A stretch of 12,360 nucleotides of DNA, from IMG/VR virus record IMGVR_UViG_2802429245_000001, positions 1 through 12,360 of that record, one strand, 5' to 3'. The notes below the pieces were generated by a model. The model was not told the DNA's origin. It saw only the letters and a program-made list of their open reading frames with translations, and searched no databases. Shown here one piece after another: positions 3,995 through 9,066 of the stretch. Positions within the stretch are counted from its first letter, which is position 1; each line of letters opens with the position of its first letter. The DNA comes from a virus. Taxonomy: Duplodnaviria; Heunggongvirae; Uroviricota; Caudoviricetes. A program made the position numbers and the translations under genes.

Positions 3995-5143
3995 ATGACC
4001 TGGCCATCTGTCACGATCGAACAGTACAACACATTCAGCAGTTCACCGGACGGCGTGGAAAATACACTGCTGTTTGTGGGCAATGCACAAAACAACAAAG
4101 GTAAGGTTCTGCCGGTTAACGCTAACAGCGATCTGGATGAACTGCTGGGAACGAACGCCAGCCCGCTGAAGAATTTCCTTCAGTCCGCACTGACCAATGC
4201 CGGGCAGAACGCCTTTTTCTATGTTGCCGTTCTGCCGGAAGCAGGCAGGGGCAAAGAAGCGACGCCAGCCTGCCAGGCATGGCAGAACGCCATACTGGCG
4301 GCTCAGGAAACTGTTTCAGTTGAAGGCGTGGTGATCACCGAACCGGTCAGCACGAAGGATGACATCAACGCCATACAGGCGTTACGTCAGACCATCATCA
4401 ATAAATATCAGCGCCGCATCTGGTTCATTCTGACCATTGCCGCCAATAACTGCAGCAAAACCTGGGCAGATTACGTTGCTGAACTGACCACGCTACAGGA
4501 AGGCATCGCCGCCCCGCAAATCATGCTGGTTCCGGAAATTTTTGGCTTTGAACCGGGCGTTCTTGCCGGCCGTCTGTGTAACAGCGCCGTCACCATTGCT
4601 GACAGTCCGGCGCGTGTGGCAACCGGGGGCCTGTCCGCACTGAAAACCACTGAACGCCCGAAGGACAGCGCAGGGCAGGCAATTGATCTCGCCACCCTGC
4701 AGGCACTGGCAACCGCCCGCTACAGCGTGCCCATGTGGTATGCCGACTATGACGGCCTTTACTGGGCTGACGGTGTAACACTTGAAGTGGAAGGTGGGGA
4801 CTACAACGTCATTGAGCATGTCCGCATTGCTGATAAGGTGGCGCGCCGCGTGCGGCTGATAGCCATCCCCAAGATTGCAGATCGCTCGCTGAACAGCACG
4901 CCGGGTAGCATTGCCGCACATGAAACGCTGTTTGCCCGCCCACTGCGTGCCATGGCGAAATCCACGCAAATTAACGGCATCACATTTCCGGGAGAAGTGA
5001 AATCGCCCCGGAAAGGCGACGTGGTTATCACCTGGCAGGACGAAAAGACGGTCAGCATCAGCATTGTCGTCCGCCCTTACGCCTGCCCTAAAACCATCAA
5101 AGTGGGCATTCAGCTGGATAAATCTCTGGAGGAAAACGCATGA
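3995..5143 (+). CDS. Putative contractile tail sheath protein (DUF2586-like family, non-P2 type)
   Basis: 382-aa product with SD AGGAG 7 nt upstream of ATG 3995. It sits in the canonical myovirus order sheath - tube - chaperone - tape measure. The track ORF start at 3863 overlaps the previous gene and is rejected. No clear similarity to P2 FI from recall. Confidence 0.55.
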   Translation: MTWPSVTIEQYNTFSSSPDGVENTLLFVGNAQNNKGKVLPVNANSDLDELLGTNASPLKNFLQSALTNAGQNAFFYVAVLPEAGRGKEATPACQAWQNAILAAQETVSVEGVVITEPVSTKDDINAIQALRQTIINKYQRRIWFILTIAANNCSKTWADYVAELTTLQEGIAAPQIMLVPEIFGFEPGVLAGRLCNSAVTIADSPARVATGGLSALKTTERPKDSAGQAIDLATLQALATARYSVPMWYADYDGLYWADGVTLEVEGGDYNVIEHVRIADKVARRVRLIAIPKIADRSLNSTPGSIAAHETLFARPLRAMAKSTQINGITFPGEVKSPRKGDVVITWQDEKTVSISIVVRPYACPKTIKVGIQLDKSLEENA

Positions 5144-5595
5144 CGACCCGCATTAACGGCATGGCGTTTGACACTTTTATCGGTGGAACGGATATCCATG
5201 TGAAAAGCATCTCACTGGACATCAGCGATGAAAGCGCCGTTGCCAAAACCCGTGGCATCCCTGACGGCAAACTGCGCGGCCCTGTCAGTGCCGAAGGTGA
5301 AATCGAAATGAGTACCCGCAGCTTTAACCAGCTCGGGGAAGTGGCTGCTCAGGCGGGATCGTGGCGTGACCTGCCGCCAATGGATTTTGTGTTTTACGCC
5401 AATACGGGAACCGAAGAAATCCGCGTTGAAGCCTTCGGTTGTGAGCTGATGCTTTCCGGCCTGTTAAGCATTGACACCGAGAGCGCAGATCTGACCACGC
5501 ACAAAATCAAGTACGTGGTGGCAAGCCCTGACTTTGTGCGTATCAACGGCGTGCCCGTTCTCTCAGAGAACGACGTGCGCGGACTGATGGGGTGA
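5140..5595 (+). CDS. Putative tail tube protein (DUF2597-like)
   Basis: 151-aa ORF whose start overlaps the sheath stop (ATGA at 5140-5143), with GGAGGA upstream. Size and position between sheath and the chaperone/tape measure genes fit a tube protein. Confidence 0.5.
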   Translation: MTTRINGMAFDTFIGGTDIHVKSISLDISDESAVAKTRGIPDGKLRGPVSAEGEIEMSTRSFNQLGEVAAQAGSWRDLPPMDFVFYANTGTEEIRVEAFGCELMLSGLLSIDTESADLTTHKIKYVVASPDFVRINGVPVLSENDVRGLMG

Positions 5596-5598
5596 ACC

Positions 5599-5895
5599 AT
5601 GCAGGAGCATGAGCGCACCATTATCACTCTGGGCATTCTGGGCGGAATCGCTGCCGCAAGTCGGGTGCTGGCTGGCGCAGAGCCGATTACGTTGCGGTTG
5701 TTTGTGGGCCGAACCCTGCTGGGGAGCGCGCTGGGTGTTTCTGCCGCTGCCCTGCTGGTTCGCTACCCGAATCTTGACCCACTGGCCATTGCCGGCGCAG
5801 GCACCGCAATGGGCGTTGCCGGTTACCAGATTGTTGAAATCTTCCTGCGTCATATGCGCCGGAAGCTGGACGAGAAAGAGAACAAAGAGGAGTAA
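5599..5895 (+). CDS. Holin (3 predicted transmembrane segments, charged C-terminus)
   Basis: 98 aa with three hydrophobic stretches (TIITLGILGGIAAASRVLAG, LRLFVGRTLLGSALGVSAAALLV, LAIAGAGTAMGVAGYQIVEIFL) and a highly charged tail (RHMRRKLDEKENKEE). SD GGGGTGA is upstream of ATG 5599 and the gene lies just upstream of the endolysin. Confidence 0.65.
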   Translation: MQEHERTIITLGILGGIAAASRVLAGAEPITLRLFVGRTLLGSALGVSAAALLVRYPNLDPLAIAGAGTAMGVAGYQIVEIFLRHMRRKLDEKENKEE

Positions 5896-5900
5896 CCGCA

Positions 5901-6008
5901 ATGTTGTCCCGCAGGGAACAAAAAGCCGCTGCCATTGCCTGGAAAATTATCCGGGCACTGTGGTACTGGCTGCGCAAACCTCAGCAACCTCATAAGGAGC
6001 AAAAATGA
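5901..6008 (+). CDS. Small basic amphipathic peptide (35 aa), hypothetical; between holin and endolysin
   Basis: ATG 5901 is preceded by a strong SD, AGAGGAG, with an 8-nt spacer. Translation is MLSRREQKAAAIAWKIIRALWYWLRKPQQPHKEQK. The stop TGA 6006-6008 overlaps the endolysin start ATG 6005-6007. It is below the size cutoff of the ORF track. Confidence 0.35.
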   Translation: MLSRREQKAAAIAWKIIRALWYWLRKPQQPHKEQK

Positions 6009-6346
6009 AACTCTCCGATAAGCAACAACAATTTACCGTCATGATCGGAAAACTCATCCAGTTTGCCCATCAGCGCGGTTATGGCCTGACGTTCGGTGAG
6101 GCGTACCGCACGCCAGAACAGGCAAAACTCAACGCACAAAAGGGATCCGGCATTGCCAACAGCCTGCACTGCCAGCGGCTGGCCGTGGATTTTAATCTGT
6201 TTATTAACGGTGAATATCAGACCCGCACAGAGGCCTACCGCGAGCTGGGCGAGTACTGGGAATCCCTTGGTGGCGCATGGGGCGGTCGTTTTAAAAACCG
6301 CCCGGATGGCAATCATTTCAGCCTTGAGCACGACGGCGTGCGCTGA
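6005..6346 (+). CDS. Endolysin, peptidase M15 (LAS-type zinc metallopeptidase, probable L-alanyl-D-glutamate endopeptidase)
   Basis: 113 aa with a perfect SD AAGGAG 4 nt upstream of ATG 6005. Metal-binding motifs SLHCQRLAVDF (H-x6-D) and DGNHFSLEHDG resemble T5-type M15 endolysins from recall. No signal peptide or SAR segment. Confidence 0.82.
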   Translation: MKLSDKQQQFTVMIGKLIQFAHQRGYGLTFGEAYRTPEQAKLNAQKGSGIANSLHCQRLAVDFNLFINGEYQTRTEAYRELGEYWESLGGAWGGRFKNRPDGNHFSLEHDGVR

Positions 6347-6353
6347 TTTTACG

Positions 6354-6383
6354 CTTAATAAGCCTTCCTGCAGGCTTATTAAG
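6354..6383 (+). terminator. Stem-loop (11-12 bp stem) immediately after the endolysin stop; possible attenuator or terminator without a strong U-tract
   Basis: CTTAATAAGCC (6354-6364) pairs with GGCTTATTAAG (6373-6383), and the loop region contains the palindrome CCTGCAGG. It is followed by CCCTCTTATTCTTGAC rather than a clean T-run. Confidence 0.3.
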
Positions 6384-6410
6384 CCCTCTTATTCTTGACT
6401 TTAAAAGGAA

Positions 6411-6704
6411 ATGATGATGAACGATAAAAACACCCAGACTACCGCAGAGAACACCATCACTTTACAGGTCGGCGAGCATGAACTGACGTTTATCCCGACC
6501 GTAAAAGCCTACAACGACCTGCAGAACGACTTCATGCCGGATAACAAAATCGCGCCGCTGAAAAACTACCTGCGCCGTATCGTGATTAAAGAGCACCGCG
6601 ATCTGCTGAACCAGCTGCTGGAAAAACCAGGAATGCCGGCCAGCCTGGCAACAGCCGTGAATAACGAGTTTGTGCCGGAAGTGGAAATCACCGTAAAAAA
6701 ATAA
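6411..6704 (+). CDS. Tail assembly chaperone (P2 gpE-like / lambda gpG analogue)
   Basis: 97-aa ORF directly upstream of the tape measure gene, ending ...EITVKK* at a run of A residues. Three tandem ATGs lie at 6411/6414/6417 and the AAAGGA SD favours the second or third. Confidence 0.7.
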   Translation: MMMNDKNTQTTAENTITLQVGEHELTFIPTVKAYNDLQNDFMPDNKIAPLKNYLRRIVIKEHRDLLNQLLEKPGMPASLATAVNNEFVPEVEITVKK

Positions 6705-6892
6705 AAAGCCATCTGGGAGCCATTGATCGCAATGACCTTACCCGGATGCTGATTCTGCGCCGCCACTGGCTGCCCGGCGAGGATGACTCGCCGCAGTCAC
6801 TGGCTGCCGCCGTCTGGCTGGATAACCACTACTGGGAAAATATGAGCATCGCCGTCAATAACGGCATTATCCGTGCTTTTAAGGGATCGTAA
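6411..6892 (+). CDS. Tail assembly chaperone, -1 frameshift-extended isoform (gpE+E' / G-T analogue), predicted ~160 aa
   Basis: The -1 frame is open from the slippery site to TAA 6890-6892, which overlaps the tape measure ATG (TAATG). The extension reads IKSHLGAIDRNDLTRMLILRRHWLPGEDDSPQSLAAAVWLDNHYWENMSIAVNNGIIRAFKGS. Recoding at this position is conserved in the chaperones of long-tailed phages. Confidence 0.55.
6695..6701 (+). other. Candidate -1 programmed ribosomal frameshift slippery heptamer A_AAA_AAA, followed immediately by the zero-frame stop TAA
   Basis: Zero-frame codons are GTA AAA AAA TAA. The heptamer AAAAAAA at 6695-6701 allows both lysyl-tRNAs to re-pair in the -1 frame, after which the reading frame continues ATA AAA AGC and onward. 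Confidence 0.5.
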
Positions 6893-9066
6893 TGTCACAA
6901 CAGCGCCTTGAATTACTTCTTGAACTGACAGACCGCCTGACAAGGCCGTTGCGTGCAGCCGGGCGACAGGTTCAGGGATTTGCTGCAACAAGTCGGGGAG
7001 CCTTTCGGGACATTGCTACCGGAGGCGCTGCGCTCTGGGGAGTGGGTGCAGCCATTCAGGGGGCACTGATGCCAGCCATTGAAATGGACAGGGCGCTCGG
7101 TGAGGTGAAATCACTGGGCGTCGCAGAGTCCGGATTGCGTAAACTCAGCCGCGCCGCCGTTGATTTCACTATGGAATACGGCGGGGCTGCGCAGGATTTT
7201 GTGCGTGCGTCATACGACATCCAGTCAGCCATTGCCGGGTTAACTGACGATGAGCTGTCCCGCTTCACCACCGCATCAGCAACGGTGGCAGCAGCAACCA
7301 AATCCAGCAGCCAGACCATTACCGCCTACATGGGCACCATGTACGGCATCTTTAAAGACCAGGCTGATGCCATGGGAAAAAGCAAATGGGTGGAGCAGGT
7401 CGCCGGGCAAACCGCCACCGCCGTGCAAATGTTTAAAACAACCGGCGATAACATGTCAGCGGCGTTCACCACGCTGGGTGCCAGTGCAAAAGCGGCCGGT
7501 ATTGATGCGGCTGAACAGTTCGCCGTGCTGGGACAACTACAGGCCACCATGAGTGGCAGCGAGGCAGGGACGAAATACAAAGCATTTCTTGCCGCAGTAG
7601 GCAGCGCCCAGAAAAAGCTGGGGCTTAATTTCGTGAATAAAGACGGCACGATGAAAAGTGTTGTCGAGATCATGAAACTTATCAGGGGCAAATTTGGTGA
7701 TCTGTCAAAAGTGGCTGATTCCGATTTGCTGAAAAGCGCCTTTGGCTCCGATGAAGCTGTGGCCATGATTAAATTACTCAATGCGGACATTGGCGGACTT
7801 GAAAAGAATATCGCCACGCTGGGCAATATCAAAGGTATGGATAAGGCTGTCGAAATGGCACAAGCCATGGCCGATCCATGGGAACAGGCCGCTGCAATTA
7901 TTAACGGCATTCGCATCGAAATTGGCACGCAGTTGTTGCCTGTTCTGTACCCGTTTATCCAGAAAAGCAACGAAGGCGGCAAATCCTTTGTTGCCTGGTT
8001 ACGTCTGTATCCAAACATCACGCGCGCAATTGGTTTACTGGCGGGGACTTTTCTTAGCCTCGCAACCGTTGGCGCTCTCAGCAATATCATCATGGGACTG
8101 TTCAGCTTTGTAACAAAAGGGCTGATTGCCCCCGTAACAGGCTTAATAAAGCTTCTCAGGTTAAGCGCATTGCGAAATACACTGGCCGCTGCTGCAACAG
8201 GGGCTTATGCCGCTGCACAACAATATCTGAACAGGGTCATGCTGGTTTCAATGCTGACAGGACGCGGCTTTCTTACCACCATGCTGATGATGAGCGGGCC
8301 CATTCTGCTTATTGGTGCAGCCATTGCAGCAGTTGTTGCTCTTGTCTGGAAATTCTGGGAACCCATCAAAGCGTTTTTCAGCGGATTCATTCAGGGGTTC
8401 AGCGATGCATGGAAGACTATTTCACTTGGCTCTCCCATTCTGGCCGATATCGGCGCTGTTTTTGGTTTTGTATGGGATGCCATCAAAACAGCATTTAACT
8501 GGCTGATGAATTTACTCACACCGGTAGAACTGACGGGCGAAGCGTTCGGACGCGCCAGCGATGCCGGTGCGTCTTTTGGCCGTATCGTTGCCACAGCAAT
8601 CAACTGGATCCTGACGCCCACTGAAATCATGCTCGGACTGTTATCAAAAGTGTGGCAGGCCCTGCTCATTATTCTGCAGGGGTATAAGGATATCTGGAAC
8701 AGCCTGGATATTACTCACCCCCTAGATTCACTGAAAAATCTGGCTTCCGGGATCCTGGCTATTTTCAGCAACCTCTGGGAACTGGTGAAACAGTCCTTCA
8801 GTGATTCATGGGGCTGGATTGTGGACAAACTCAACATGATCCCCGGCGTTAACATCGGCACATCAGAAAGCACAGGAAGTGGCGAAGGCTCCGTATTAAC
8901 CGGCGGTAAAGCCATCAGCGCGGGGCCGGGTGGCATTGCGGCAGAAATGCAGAACAACAGCGAAAACCAGACCACCATCGACAACTCCCGTCGTGTGGTC
9001 AACGTCAATGTGCAGGATCCATCCCCTGCCCGTCTTAACGAGTGGATGGAGCTGCATGCATACTGA
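6892..9066 (+). CDS. Tail tape measure protein
   Basis: 724 aa with an Ala-rich, helical N-terminal half, central hydrophobic segments and C-terminal aromatic periodicity typical of tape measure proteins. It lies immediately downstream of the frameshifting chaperone. By the roughly 0.15 nm per residue rule this predicts a tail on the order of 100 nm (inference). Confidence 0.88.
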   Translation: MSQQRLELLLELTDRLTRPLRAAGRQVQGFAATSRGAFRDIATGGAALWGVGAAIQGALMPAIEMDRALGEVKSLGVAESGLRKLSRAAVDFTMEYGGAAQDFVRASYDIQSAIAGLTDDELSRFTTASATVAAATKSSSQTITAYMGTMYGIFKDQADAMGKSKWVEQVAGQTATAVQMFKTTGDNMSAAFTTLGASAKAAGIDAAEQFAVLGQLQATMSGSEAGTKYKAFLAAVGSAQKKLGLNFVNKDGTMKSVVEIMKLIRGKFGDLSKVADSDLLKSAFGSDEAVAMIKLLNADIGGLEKNIATLGNIKGMDKAVEMAQAMADPWEQAAAIINGIRIEIGTQLLPVLYPFIQKSNEGGKSFVAWLRLYPNITRAIGLLAGTFLSLATVGALSNIIMGLFSFVTKGLIAPVTGLIKLLRLSALRNTLAAAATGAYAAAQQYLNRVMLVSMLTGRGFLTTMLMMSGPILLIGAAIAAVVALVWKFWEPIKAFFSGFIQGFSDAWKTISLGSPILADIGAVFGFVWDAIKTAFNWLMNLLTPVELTGEAFGRASDAGASFGRIVATAINWILTPTEIMLGLLSKVWQALLIILQGYKDIWNSLDITHPLDSLKNLASGILAIFSNLWELVKQSFSDSWGWIVDKLNMIPGVNIGTSESTGSGEGSVLTGGKAISAGPGGIAAEMQNNSENQTTIDNSRRVVNVNVQDPSPARLNEWMELHAY

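Follow-up and report, generated by a model that had tools for sequence, protein, structure and literature searches.

A spanin-less lysis cassette in an HP1-like Escherichia prophage with a candidate spanin substitute between the holin and endolysin genes

Late genes and lysis cassette of the prophage

We analyzed a 12.4-kb stretch of viral DNA, referred to as the window throughout. It covers the late genes of a prophage of Escherichia that is HP1-like (Peduoviridae). Matches in Pfam and PHROG place a P2-type major capsid gene at 448-1461 and a small terminase gene at 1479-2189; head completion and tail completion genes follow, and then a sheath gene (DUF2586) that ends at 5143. The tape measure gene lies at 6892-9066, with the baseplate genes after it. 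The lysis cassette is bounded upstream by the gene of a tail tube protein of the HP1 Orf24 family (5140..5595, + strand; Pfam Phage_HP1_Orf24, E = 1e-50) and downstream by the gene of a tail assembly chaperone (6411..6704, + strand; Pfam Phage_TAC_10, E = 1.6e-26).

The holin gene (5599..5895, + strand) encodes a 98-aa protein with three predicted transmembrane domains (TMDs) and a charged C-terminal tail, which matched Pfam Phage_holin_3_2 over its full length (E = 5.5e-28). Its score of 97.6 bits (gathering cutoff 25) places it in Phage holin family 2 (PF04550), and it also matched PHROG 175, a holin family (E = 1e-32). The endolysin gene (6005..6346, + strand) encodes a 113-aa M15 metallopeptidase that matched Pfam Peptidase_M15_4 (E = 3e-11) as well as PHROG endolysin families, and falls within PF13539 (M15 peptidase) at 44.1 bits (gathering cutoff 25). 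Reading of its N-terminus revealed neither a signal peptide nor a SAR domain. The enzyme is 79-86% identical to the endolysins of spanin-bearing relatives and has no added extension. Between the holin and endolysin genes lies a small ORF (5901..6008, + strand) for a 35-aa cationic amphipathic peptide, MLSRREQKAAAIAWKIIRALWYWLRKPQQPHKEQK, which we regard as a candidate spanin substitute (disruptin-like).

Downstream of the endolysin gene, only 64 nt (6347..6410) separate its stop codon from the ATG of the chaperone gene. This interval, which we call the empty spanin slot, is too short for any ORF. A terminator-like scan found a perfect 13-bp inverted repeat in it, with a 6-nt loop and a weak T-rich tail (6353..6384, + strand). 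Folding of the RNA gave energies of -18.6 (centroid) and -20.7 kcal/mol (minimum free energy), with z = -4.0, and the hairpin is kept throughout the clade. No Rfam match was obtained for the window, so the hairpin does not belong to a known RNA family. A first, sequence-only reading of this DNA had described the endolysin gene as followed by a hairpin and the tail chaperone gene and by nothing else, and the coordinates and the 64-nt gap agree with that description.

Prophages in complete E. coli genomes are 97.7-97.9% identical to the window, and the cassette region is present in 42 of 5426 such genomes (~0.8%). The lineage also occurs in E. albertii, and its late genes are otherwise intact. 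A megablast search of phage records with the cassette gave no match, so this lineage is absent from deposited phages; for the tube gene, the top protein match in a set of 50,697 phage records was no more than 56% identical. Two complete prophages served as proxies for the whole phage. L148 (CFIAFB20180511), inserted in topB, appears intact, is ~35 kb long and is 97.9% identical to the window, while L001 (EC42405) is 97.7% identical and has a disrupted tail-fibre region.

Spanin genes in relatives and their absence from the window lineage

The slot that is empty here is occupied in the relatives. In Salmonella phage SI7, the slot holds an Rz gene, whose 127-aa product has an N-terminal TMD, and an overlapping gene for Rz1, with the lipobox ITSGC; the chaperone gene comes immediately after them. 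HP1, phiO18P and Pmp5 likewise have an annotated Rz-like spanin gene 3' of the endolysin gene. We retrieved 80 IMG/VR loci with the window endolysin, 59 of which show an HP1-like context and match both SI7 Rz and SI7 Rz1. The slot holding Rz and the overlapping Rz1 measures about 480-520 bp: the distance from endolysin to chaperone gene is 482-519 bp in spanin-bearing loci versus 68-100 bp in spanin-less ones. Two further IMG/VR loci lie in other contexts, and one of them (L022) has the same endolysin in a different cassette that includes Rz with an embedded Rz1.

A similar picture was obtained for GTDB species-representative genomes, 37 of 39 of which carry one or more spanin-type ORFs immediately 3' of the endolysin gene (one spanin was confirmed by hand, and one further locus is a truncated remnant). 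Spanins are lacking only in the window lineage, that is, in 18 IMG/VR loci, E. albertii, the E. coli prophages and the sister contig L021. Since the relatives hold spanin-type ORFs in exactly the same slot, the absence here is meaningful rather than trivial. The ancestral order in the HP1-like group is holin, endolysin and Rz with overlapping Rz1, and the window lineage has lost the pair.

We scanned all six frames for lipoproteins from every ATG, GTG or TTG start, looking for a positively charged n-region, a hydrophobic core and a lipobox Cys, and searched separately for N-terminal transmembrane segments. As a positive control, the lipoprotein scan recovered Rz1 of SI7. Signal-peptide and lipobox prediction in all frames had been proposed in the sequence-only reading; run on the window, it gave no credible ORF, only antisense and alternative-frame artefacts. 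Antisense lipobox-like ORFs in the tape-measure gene and other genes were rejected as by-products of Ala/Gly-rich coding on the opposite strand. Among + strand ORFs of 50-250 aa in the window, none has an N-terminal TMD except the holin itself. These six-frame scans bear out the earlier statement that no spanin gene adjoins the endolysin gene.

Each known spanin architecture was considered in turn. We found neither an i-spanin, i.e., a type II protein with an N-terminal TMD and ~100 aa of periplasmic coiled-coil, nor an o-spanin, i.e., a lipoprotein with a lipobox Cys whose gene is adjacent to, overlaps or is embedded in the i-spanin gene. A unimolecular spanin of the T1 gp11 type, with a lipobox signal and a C-terminal TMD, was not found in the late region either, which is free of lipobox ORFs. 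Further, tblastn with SI7 Rz and Rz1 returned no match.

Three ORFs nested in or near the cassette were examined individually and rejected. The ORF at 6096-6398 is out of frame, embedded on the + strand and without a family match in Pfam or PHROG. The earlier reading had stated that it lacks a signal peptide, which is right for the full-length ORF; only from an internal start at 6267/6270 does a marginal lipobox-like motif, STTAC, appear. The Cys of this motif is encoded by the codons of the endolysin's terminal Gly-Val-Arg and is Phe at that position in SI7, and the tail after it is 19 aa in the window, 7 aa in L018 (after a 22-nt insertion) and 6 aa in L021. Because the Cys derives from endolysin codons and the tail is not conserved, we consider that this ORF is neither an o-spanin nor a gene. 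The ORF at 5609-5995 (128 aa) is in the endolysin frame, overlaps the holin gene and has no lipobox or signal; its translation differs at many positions in L109 from E. albertii, and in L021 its frame continues into the endolysin. The nested 28-aa ORF at 5935-6021 has no hydrophobic signal.

The search of the rest of the prophage for membrane-protein/lipoprotein pairs, also proposed in the earlier reading, was run on the two proxies and yielded no credible pair. L001 and L148 have no annotated spanin, and their six-frame scans gave no Rz-like type-II protein. The sole lipoprotein in both is a 274-276-aa SPFH-domain protein of the early region, preceded by a 67-aa protein with two TMDs. These two proteins look like an NfeD/SPFH-type module, and we rejected them as spanins on account of wrong domain, size and location. 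The sequence-only reading had left three options for the spanins: encoded elsewhere, replaced by another mechanism, or absent. With the proxy scans and tblastn negative, it is unlikely that they are encoded elsewhere in the prophage, and since they were not found there, "replaced" or "absent" stands.

A conserved small ORF at the holin-endolysin junction

The 35-aa ORF was missed in the sequence-only reading; it lies just upstream of, and overlaps, position 6005, at which the region of interest in that reading began. A Shine-Dalgarno sequence, AGAGGAG (5886..5892, + strand), sits inside the last holin codons, 8 nt 5' of the ATG, and its GAGGAG is conserved in all alleles. The stop codon overlaps the endolysin start codon as ATGA, a usual sign of translational coupling between the two genes. 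The spacer between the holin and endolysin genes is 110 nt in the window, whereas in spanin-bearing relatives the two genes range from a 10-nt overlap to a 43-nt gap.

Across ten nucleotide alleles, the pN/pS of the ORF was 0.15-0.5; part of this conservation is unrelated to the peptide, because the C-terminal HKE codons (31-33) double as the Shine-Dalgarno sequence of the endolysin gene, placed at 5994-5999. Replacements are conservative (R/K/H, I/V, A/V and E/D). Of all residues, only residue 22 (Y/H/R/C) is hypervariable, and it maps to the polar side of the predicted helix. Three independent indels, of -1, -3 and +3 aa, are all in frame. Shortened alleles of 27 aa and 33 aa occur in L009 and in L005-L007, respectively. 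The ORF is carried by all 18 window-type IMG/VR loci and by L001, L148, L109 (E. albertii), L180 and L181. Taken together, we hold with high confidence that this small ORF is a real gene.

A small ORF at this spot is found in every spanin-less locus and in none of the spanin-bearing loci. This mutual exclusion can be traced to only one or two events in evolution, and the holin clade confounds it, because the peptide also accompanies one particular holin subtype. The peptide is likely made and likely acts in lysis.

The peptide is roughly 4 kDa, carries a net charge of +7, is rich in Trp and ends in a short Pro/Gln tail. It shows no TMD or signal sequence, K15 and R18 breaking the hydrophobic stretch. 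Its hydrophobic moment is 0.62 in an 18-residue window, a value reached by 3.7% of shuffles; the corresponding values are 0.51-0.89 for magainin, melittin, cecropin and LL-37 and 0.68 for phiKT gp28. The polar stripe of the predicted helix runs R4-K8-K15-R18-Y22-R25/K26. AlphaFold2 modeled a single helix over residues 4-25 followed by a disordered Pro/Gln tail, with block-mean pLDDT values of 78 and 90 over residues 1-20. Three of 21 short + strand ORFs pass the same cationic and amphipathic thresholds, so these two properties are not rare in such GC-rich DNA; the other two passing ORFs lie out of frame inside known genes.

Homologue searches did not lead beyond the clade. The peptide has no Pfam or PHROG match, and tblastn against the 50,697 phage records was negative. 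To search 5.8 billion proteins, we used 40 codons, 5 of which lie upstream of the ORF; the result was only 8 unnamed clusters (32-38 aa). Two alleles were looked up, and both sit in the same cassette. A degenerate DNA pattern search of IMG/VR recovered only the same clade plus chance matches. BLASTP against gp28 gave no alignment at E <= 100. By sequence comparison, the peptide thus has no detectable homologue beyond its own clade.

The sister lineage, comprising L021 and L184, is also spanin-less. Its identity to the window is 73% for the holin, 86% for the endolysin, 84% for the tube protein and 83% for the chaperone, and an L021-type cassette gave no megablast match in complete E. coli genomes. 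At the same spot this lineage has a cationic ORF encoding 41 aa, or 28 aa if its internal ATG is used (MTGKKASPGILSGMRQFAVKVWQLLRSLQKLRNSMNGKTRP), with a net charge of +9. It begins at the holin stop codon and ends in ATGA at the endolysin start. Between its two known alleles there are 7 synonymous changes and 3 conservative ones. BLASTP detected no sequence similarity between the L021 peptide and the 35-aa window peptide, and alignment of the two spacer DNAs showed only out-of-frame similarity. Position, coupling, charge and amphipathicity are thus common to the two peptides, while sequence is not. Since these traits are kept between the lineages without the sequence, a lipid target fits better than a specific protein partner.

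Possible roles of the peptide and comparison with known lysis systems

[quoted passage not shown] One of them, the coliphage phiKT, encodes gp28, a protein of 56 aa with a net charge of +7 whose gene is flanked by those of the endolysin and the holin (Holt et al.; bioRxiv 10.1101/515445). It complements lambda Rz/Rz1 mutants and was named a "disruptin"; phiKT gp28 is the only disruptin shown experimentally so far (bioRxiv 10.1101/515445). Its homologues are limited to phage PGT2, so homology does not define the class, and the authors called bioinformatic discovery of further disruptins hard (bioRxiv 10.1101/515445). The 35-aa peptide has no sequence homology to gp28. It is small (<80 aa), has a net charge of at least +4 and no TMD or export signal, is predicted to form an amphipathic alpha-helix, and is encoded in the lysis cassette of a spanin-less phage. 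As far as its sequence tells, it therefore fits the descriptive criteria of disruptins, a class that is itself defined by function.

The reading that we favour is that the peptide is a functional analogue of gp28 and may replace spanin function through outer-membrane disruption, a proposal to which we give close to an even chance. The lineage has lost the spanin pair and has a new, translationally coupled 35-codon gene between the holin and endolysin genes. The holin, of class-I type, would open non-specific holes in the inner membrane, through which the soluble M15 endolysin and the ~4-kDa peptide would pass together into the periplasm. After cleavage of the murein, the peptide would insert into the outer membrane and destabilise it in the manner of cationic antimicrobial peptides and phiKT gp28. 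Its action would thereby stand in for spanin-mediated membrane fusion.

We weighed four other explanations. One is that the spanins were lost and nothing replaces them: the outer membrane would fail by shear or osmotic stress, or the prophage would be decaying, and the ORF would have a marginal role or one unrelated to the outer membrane. When shaken in the laboratory, cultures of lambda spanin mutants do lyse as long as the outer membrane is not stabilised by divalent cations, which makes such a loss conceivable, as do the spanin-less share of phages cited above (bioRxiv 10.1101/515445), the shortened alleles of the ORF and the disrupted tail-fibre region of L001. However, spanins are kept by essentially every other relative, and this near-universal retention points to strong selection for the outer-membrane step. 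The lineage is also widespread (42/5426 E. coli genomes, and E. albertii) with intact late genes and an apparently intact member, L148, the ORF is under purifying selection, and the sister lineage has a second, unrelated cationic ORF at this position. We consider simple loss unlikely, at about one chance in five.

An accessory role of the peptide at the inner membrane or with the endolysin is about equally unlikely. It would then be an antiholin or a holin helper, with outer-membrane disruption either absent or brought about by something else. Small lysis factors at the holin level do exist, such as Lcc6 of LambdaSo, which has 65 aa and a TMD and is needed at the holin step (bioRxiv 10.1101/2024.01.23.576932). 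In the present clade, the gene lies directly 3' of the holin gene and the peptide co-occurs with one holin subtype, a pattern that a holin-specific partner would yield identically. Classical antiholins, however, have a TMD, as does Lcc6, and the 35-aa peptide has none. Further, the sister holin is 73% identical, yet its companion peptide is dissimilar and shares only charge and amphipathicity, and holins of the same family work without any such peptide in spanin-bearing relatives.

That the 110-nt spacer is merely a regulatory or coupling sequence whose open frame is incidental appears very improbable. The ORF is very short, its 3' end holds the endolysin Shine-Dalgarno sequence, and PGAP leaves it unannotated in the RefSeq proxies, although other gene callers do call it. 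Against this, its pN/pS is well below 1, its indels are all multiples of three, its own Shine-Dalgarno sequence and the ATGA overlap are conserved, and the sister lineage maintains an equivalent ORF of different sequence. Least probable of all, and largely refuted with proxies 97.7-97.9% identical standing for the rest of the prophage, is that spanins are hidden in another frame of the cassette or elsewhere: LambdaSo was presumed spanin-less until a nested Rz/Rz1 was found between its holin and endolysin genes (bioRxiv 10.1101/2024.01.23.576932), and a marginal lipobox in ORF 6096-6398 and an early-region membrane-protein/lipoprotein pair in the proxies are on record here, but the SI7-validated scans of the window and both whole proxies gave no credible candidate, the STTAC tail is unconserved, the nested spacer ORFs have no hydrophobic signal or TMD, and the early pair resembles an NfeD/SPFH module.

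Somewhat more tentatively than for the replacement of spanin function, the two junction peptides, that of 35 aa in the window lineage and the unrelated one of 41 aa in the sister lineage, could represent a second and a third disruptin family, which would have arisen at the holin-endolysin junction upon loss of Rz/Rz1. Of interest here is a candidate second disruptin family, in a clade where spanin-bearing relatives bracket the swap. If the reading is true, the clade would display a natural, bracketed swap from fusion spanins to a cationic membrane-active peptide, and disruptins would be findable by synteny comparison with spanin-bearing relatives. Because such close relatives exist, the present candidate was picked by synteny and mutual exclusion, not by charge and size alone. 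Confirmation would mean that the disruptin solution recurs in temperate E. coli myoviruses, would provide a natural 35-residue peptide of possible antimicrobial use, and would add a small, mostly unannotated gene to a prophage that ~0.8% of complete E. coli genomes contain.

Compared with known lysis systems, the Rz/Rz1 pairs of relatives, namely HP1 orf25 and SI7 gp13 with its overlapping Rz1, lie in the adjacent slot of this cassette and carry out the step that the window lacks. The window has no such type-II membrane protein, no lipoprotein and nothing able to span the periplasm, and the 35-aa peptide is too short to bridge both membranes. LambdaSo Lcc6 and antiholins are similar in being small extra genes in or near a lysis cassette, but Lcc6 is transmembrane and works with the holin, unlike the TMD-free window peptide. 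In size, charge, hydrophobic moment and interfacial Trp, the peptide resembles LL-37, cecropin, magainin and melittin. Those are secreted host-defence peptides that act from outside, whereas the window peptide would be produced in the cytoplasm and exert its effect from within, following holin triggering.

The closest likeness is to phiKT gp28. Both peptides are small (35 versus 56 aa), carry a net charge of +7, are predicted to form an amphipathic helix and lack a TMD and a signal. In each case the gene belongs to the lysis cassette of a spanin-less coliphage, where its neighbour encodes a holin of one and the same Pfam family; with 29% identity over 75 aa (pairwise E = 2e-11), the window holin is a distant homologue of gp29, the phiKT holin. 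The window peptide differs from gp28 in being shorter and Trp-rich, with no sequence similarity. The gene order also differs, being holin-peptide-endolysin in the window and endolysin-peptide-holin in phiKT, and the carrier is a temperate HP1-like myovirus instead of a virulent podovirus. Unlike phiKT, the window phage has close spanin-bearing relatives with the same cassette, so that the swap is visible.

Possible exchange of the endolysin gene, and a mosaic breakpoint at the left end of the window

The endolysin of the window (6005-6346) shares 79-86% identity with those of the spanin-bearing relatives, whereas the tube, holin and chaperone proteins of the same relatives are just 40-58% identical to their counterparts in the window. 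The same endolysin is also carried by a different cassette type, found in the IMG/VR locus L022. Given this disparity between neighboring genes and the occurrence in L022, the sequence comparison suggests that the endolysin gene alone was exchanged horizontally, or else that it is unusually strongly conserved. At the left end, positions 1-127, which precede the capsid gene where the scaffold gene comes to an end, were unaligned to every complete E. coli genome that otherwise matches at 96-98% identity. This marks a local mosaic breakpoint.

The former spanin slot and the tail chaperone

Inside the former spanin slot lies a perfect 13-bp hairpin (6353-6384), with a centroid energy of -18.6 kcal/mol and a minimum free energy of -20.7 kcal/mol (z = -4.0). 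Loci of the spanin-less clade all keep it, although L018, the locus with a 22-nt insertion, has it in a variant form. Its T-rich tail is weak, and no match to it was found in Rfam. Possible roles are partial termination and stabilization of the mRNA; alternatively, the hairpin may be a scar of recombination.

The tail chaperone gene (6411-6704, + strand) ends with ...GTA AAA AAA TAA, and the -1 frame at its 3' end has no stop from at least 6671 until 6892, where the stop immediately precedes the tape-measure ATG. The distal part of this frame (6746-6892) is annotated in RefSeq as a separate gene, "DUF6890 family protein". Such an arrangement resembles the programmed -1 frameshift (G/GT type) that is classic for tail chaperone genes.

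A lipoprotein pair in the proxy prophages and holin kinship with phiKT

Outside the window, the early regions of the complete proxy prophages L148 (6092-7122) and L001 (4115-5148) encode a 67-aa protein with two TMDs, followed, with a 4-bp gene overlap, by a 274-276-aa SPFH-domain lipoprotein with the lipobox LLVGC, the only lipoprotein in the proxy prophage. This pair is not spanin-like and was rejected as a spanin candidate; it looks like NfeD/SPFH-like accessory (moron) genes.

A proven disruptin is known from phiKT only (bioRxiv 10.1101/515445). The phiKT holin gp29 (4283-4666 in the phiKT locus, L183) is distantly homologous to the window holin (5599-5895), with which it aligns over 75 aa at 29% identity (E 2e-11); both are alike in belonging to "phage holin family 2".
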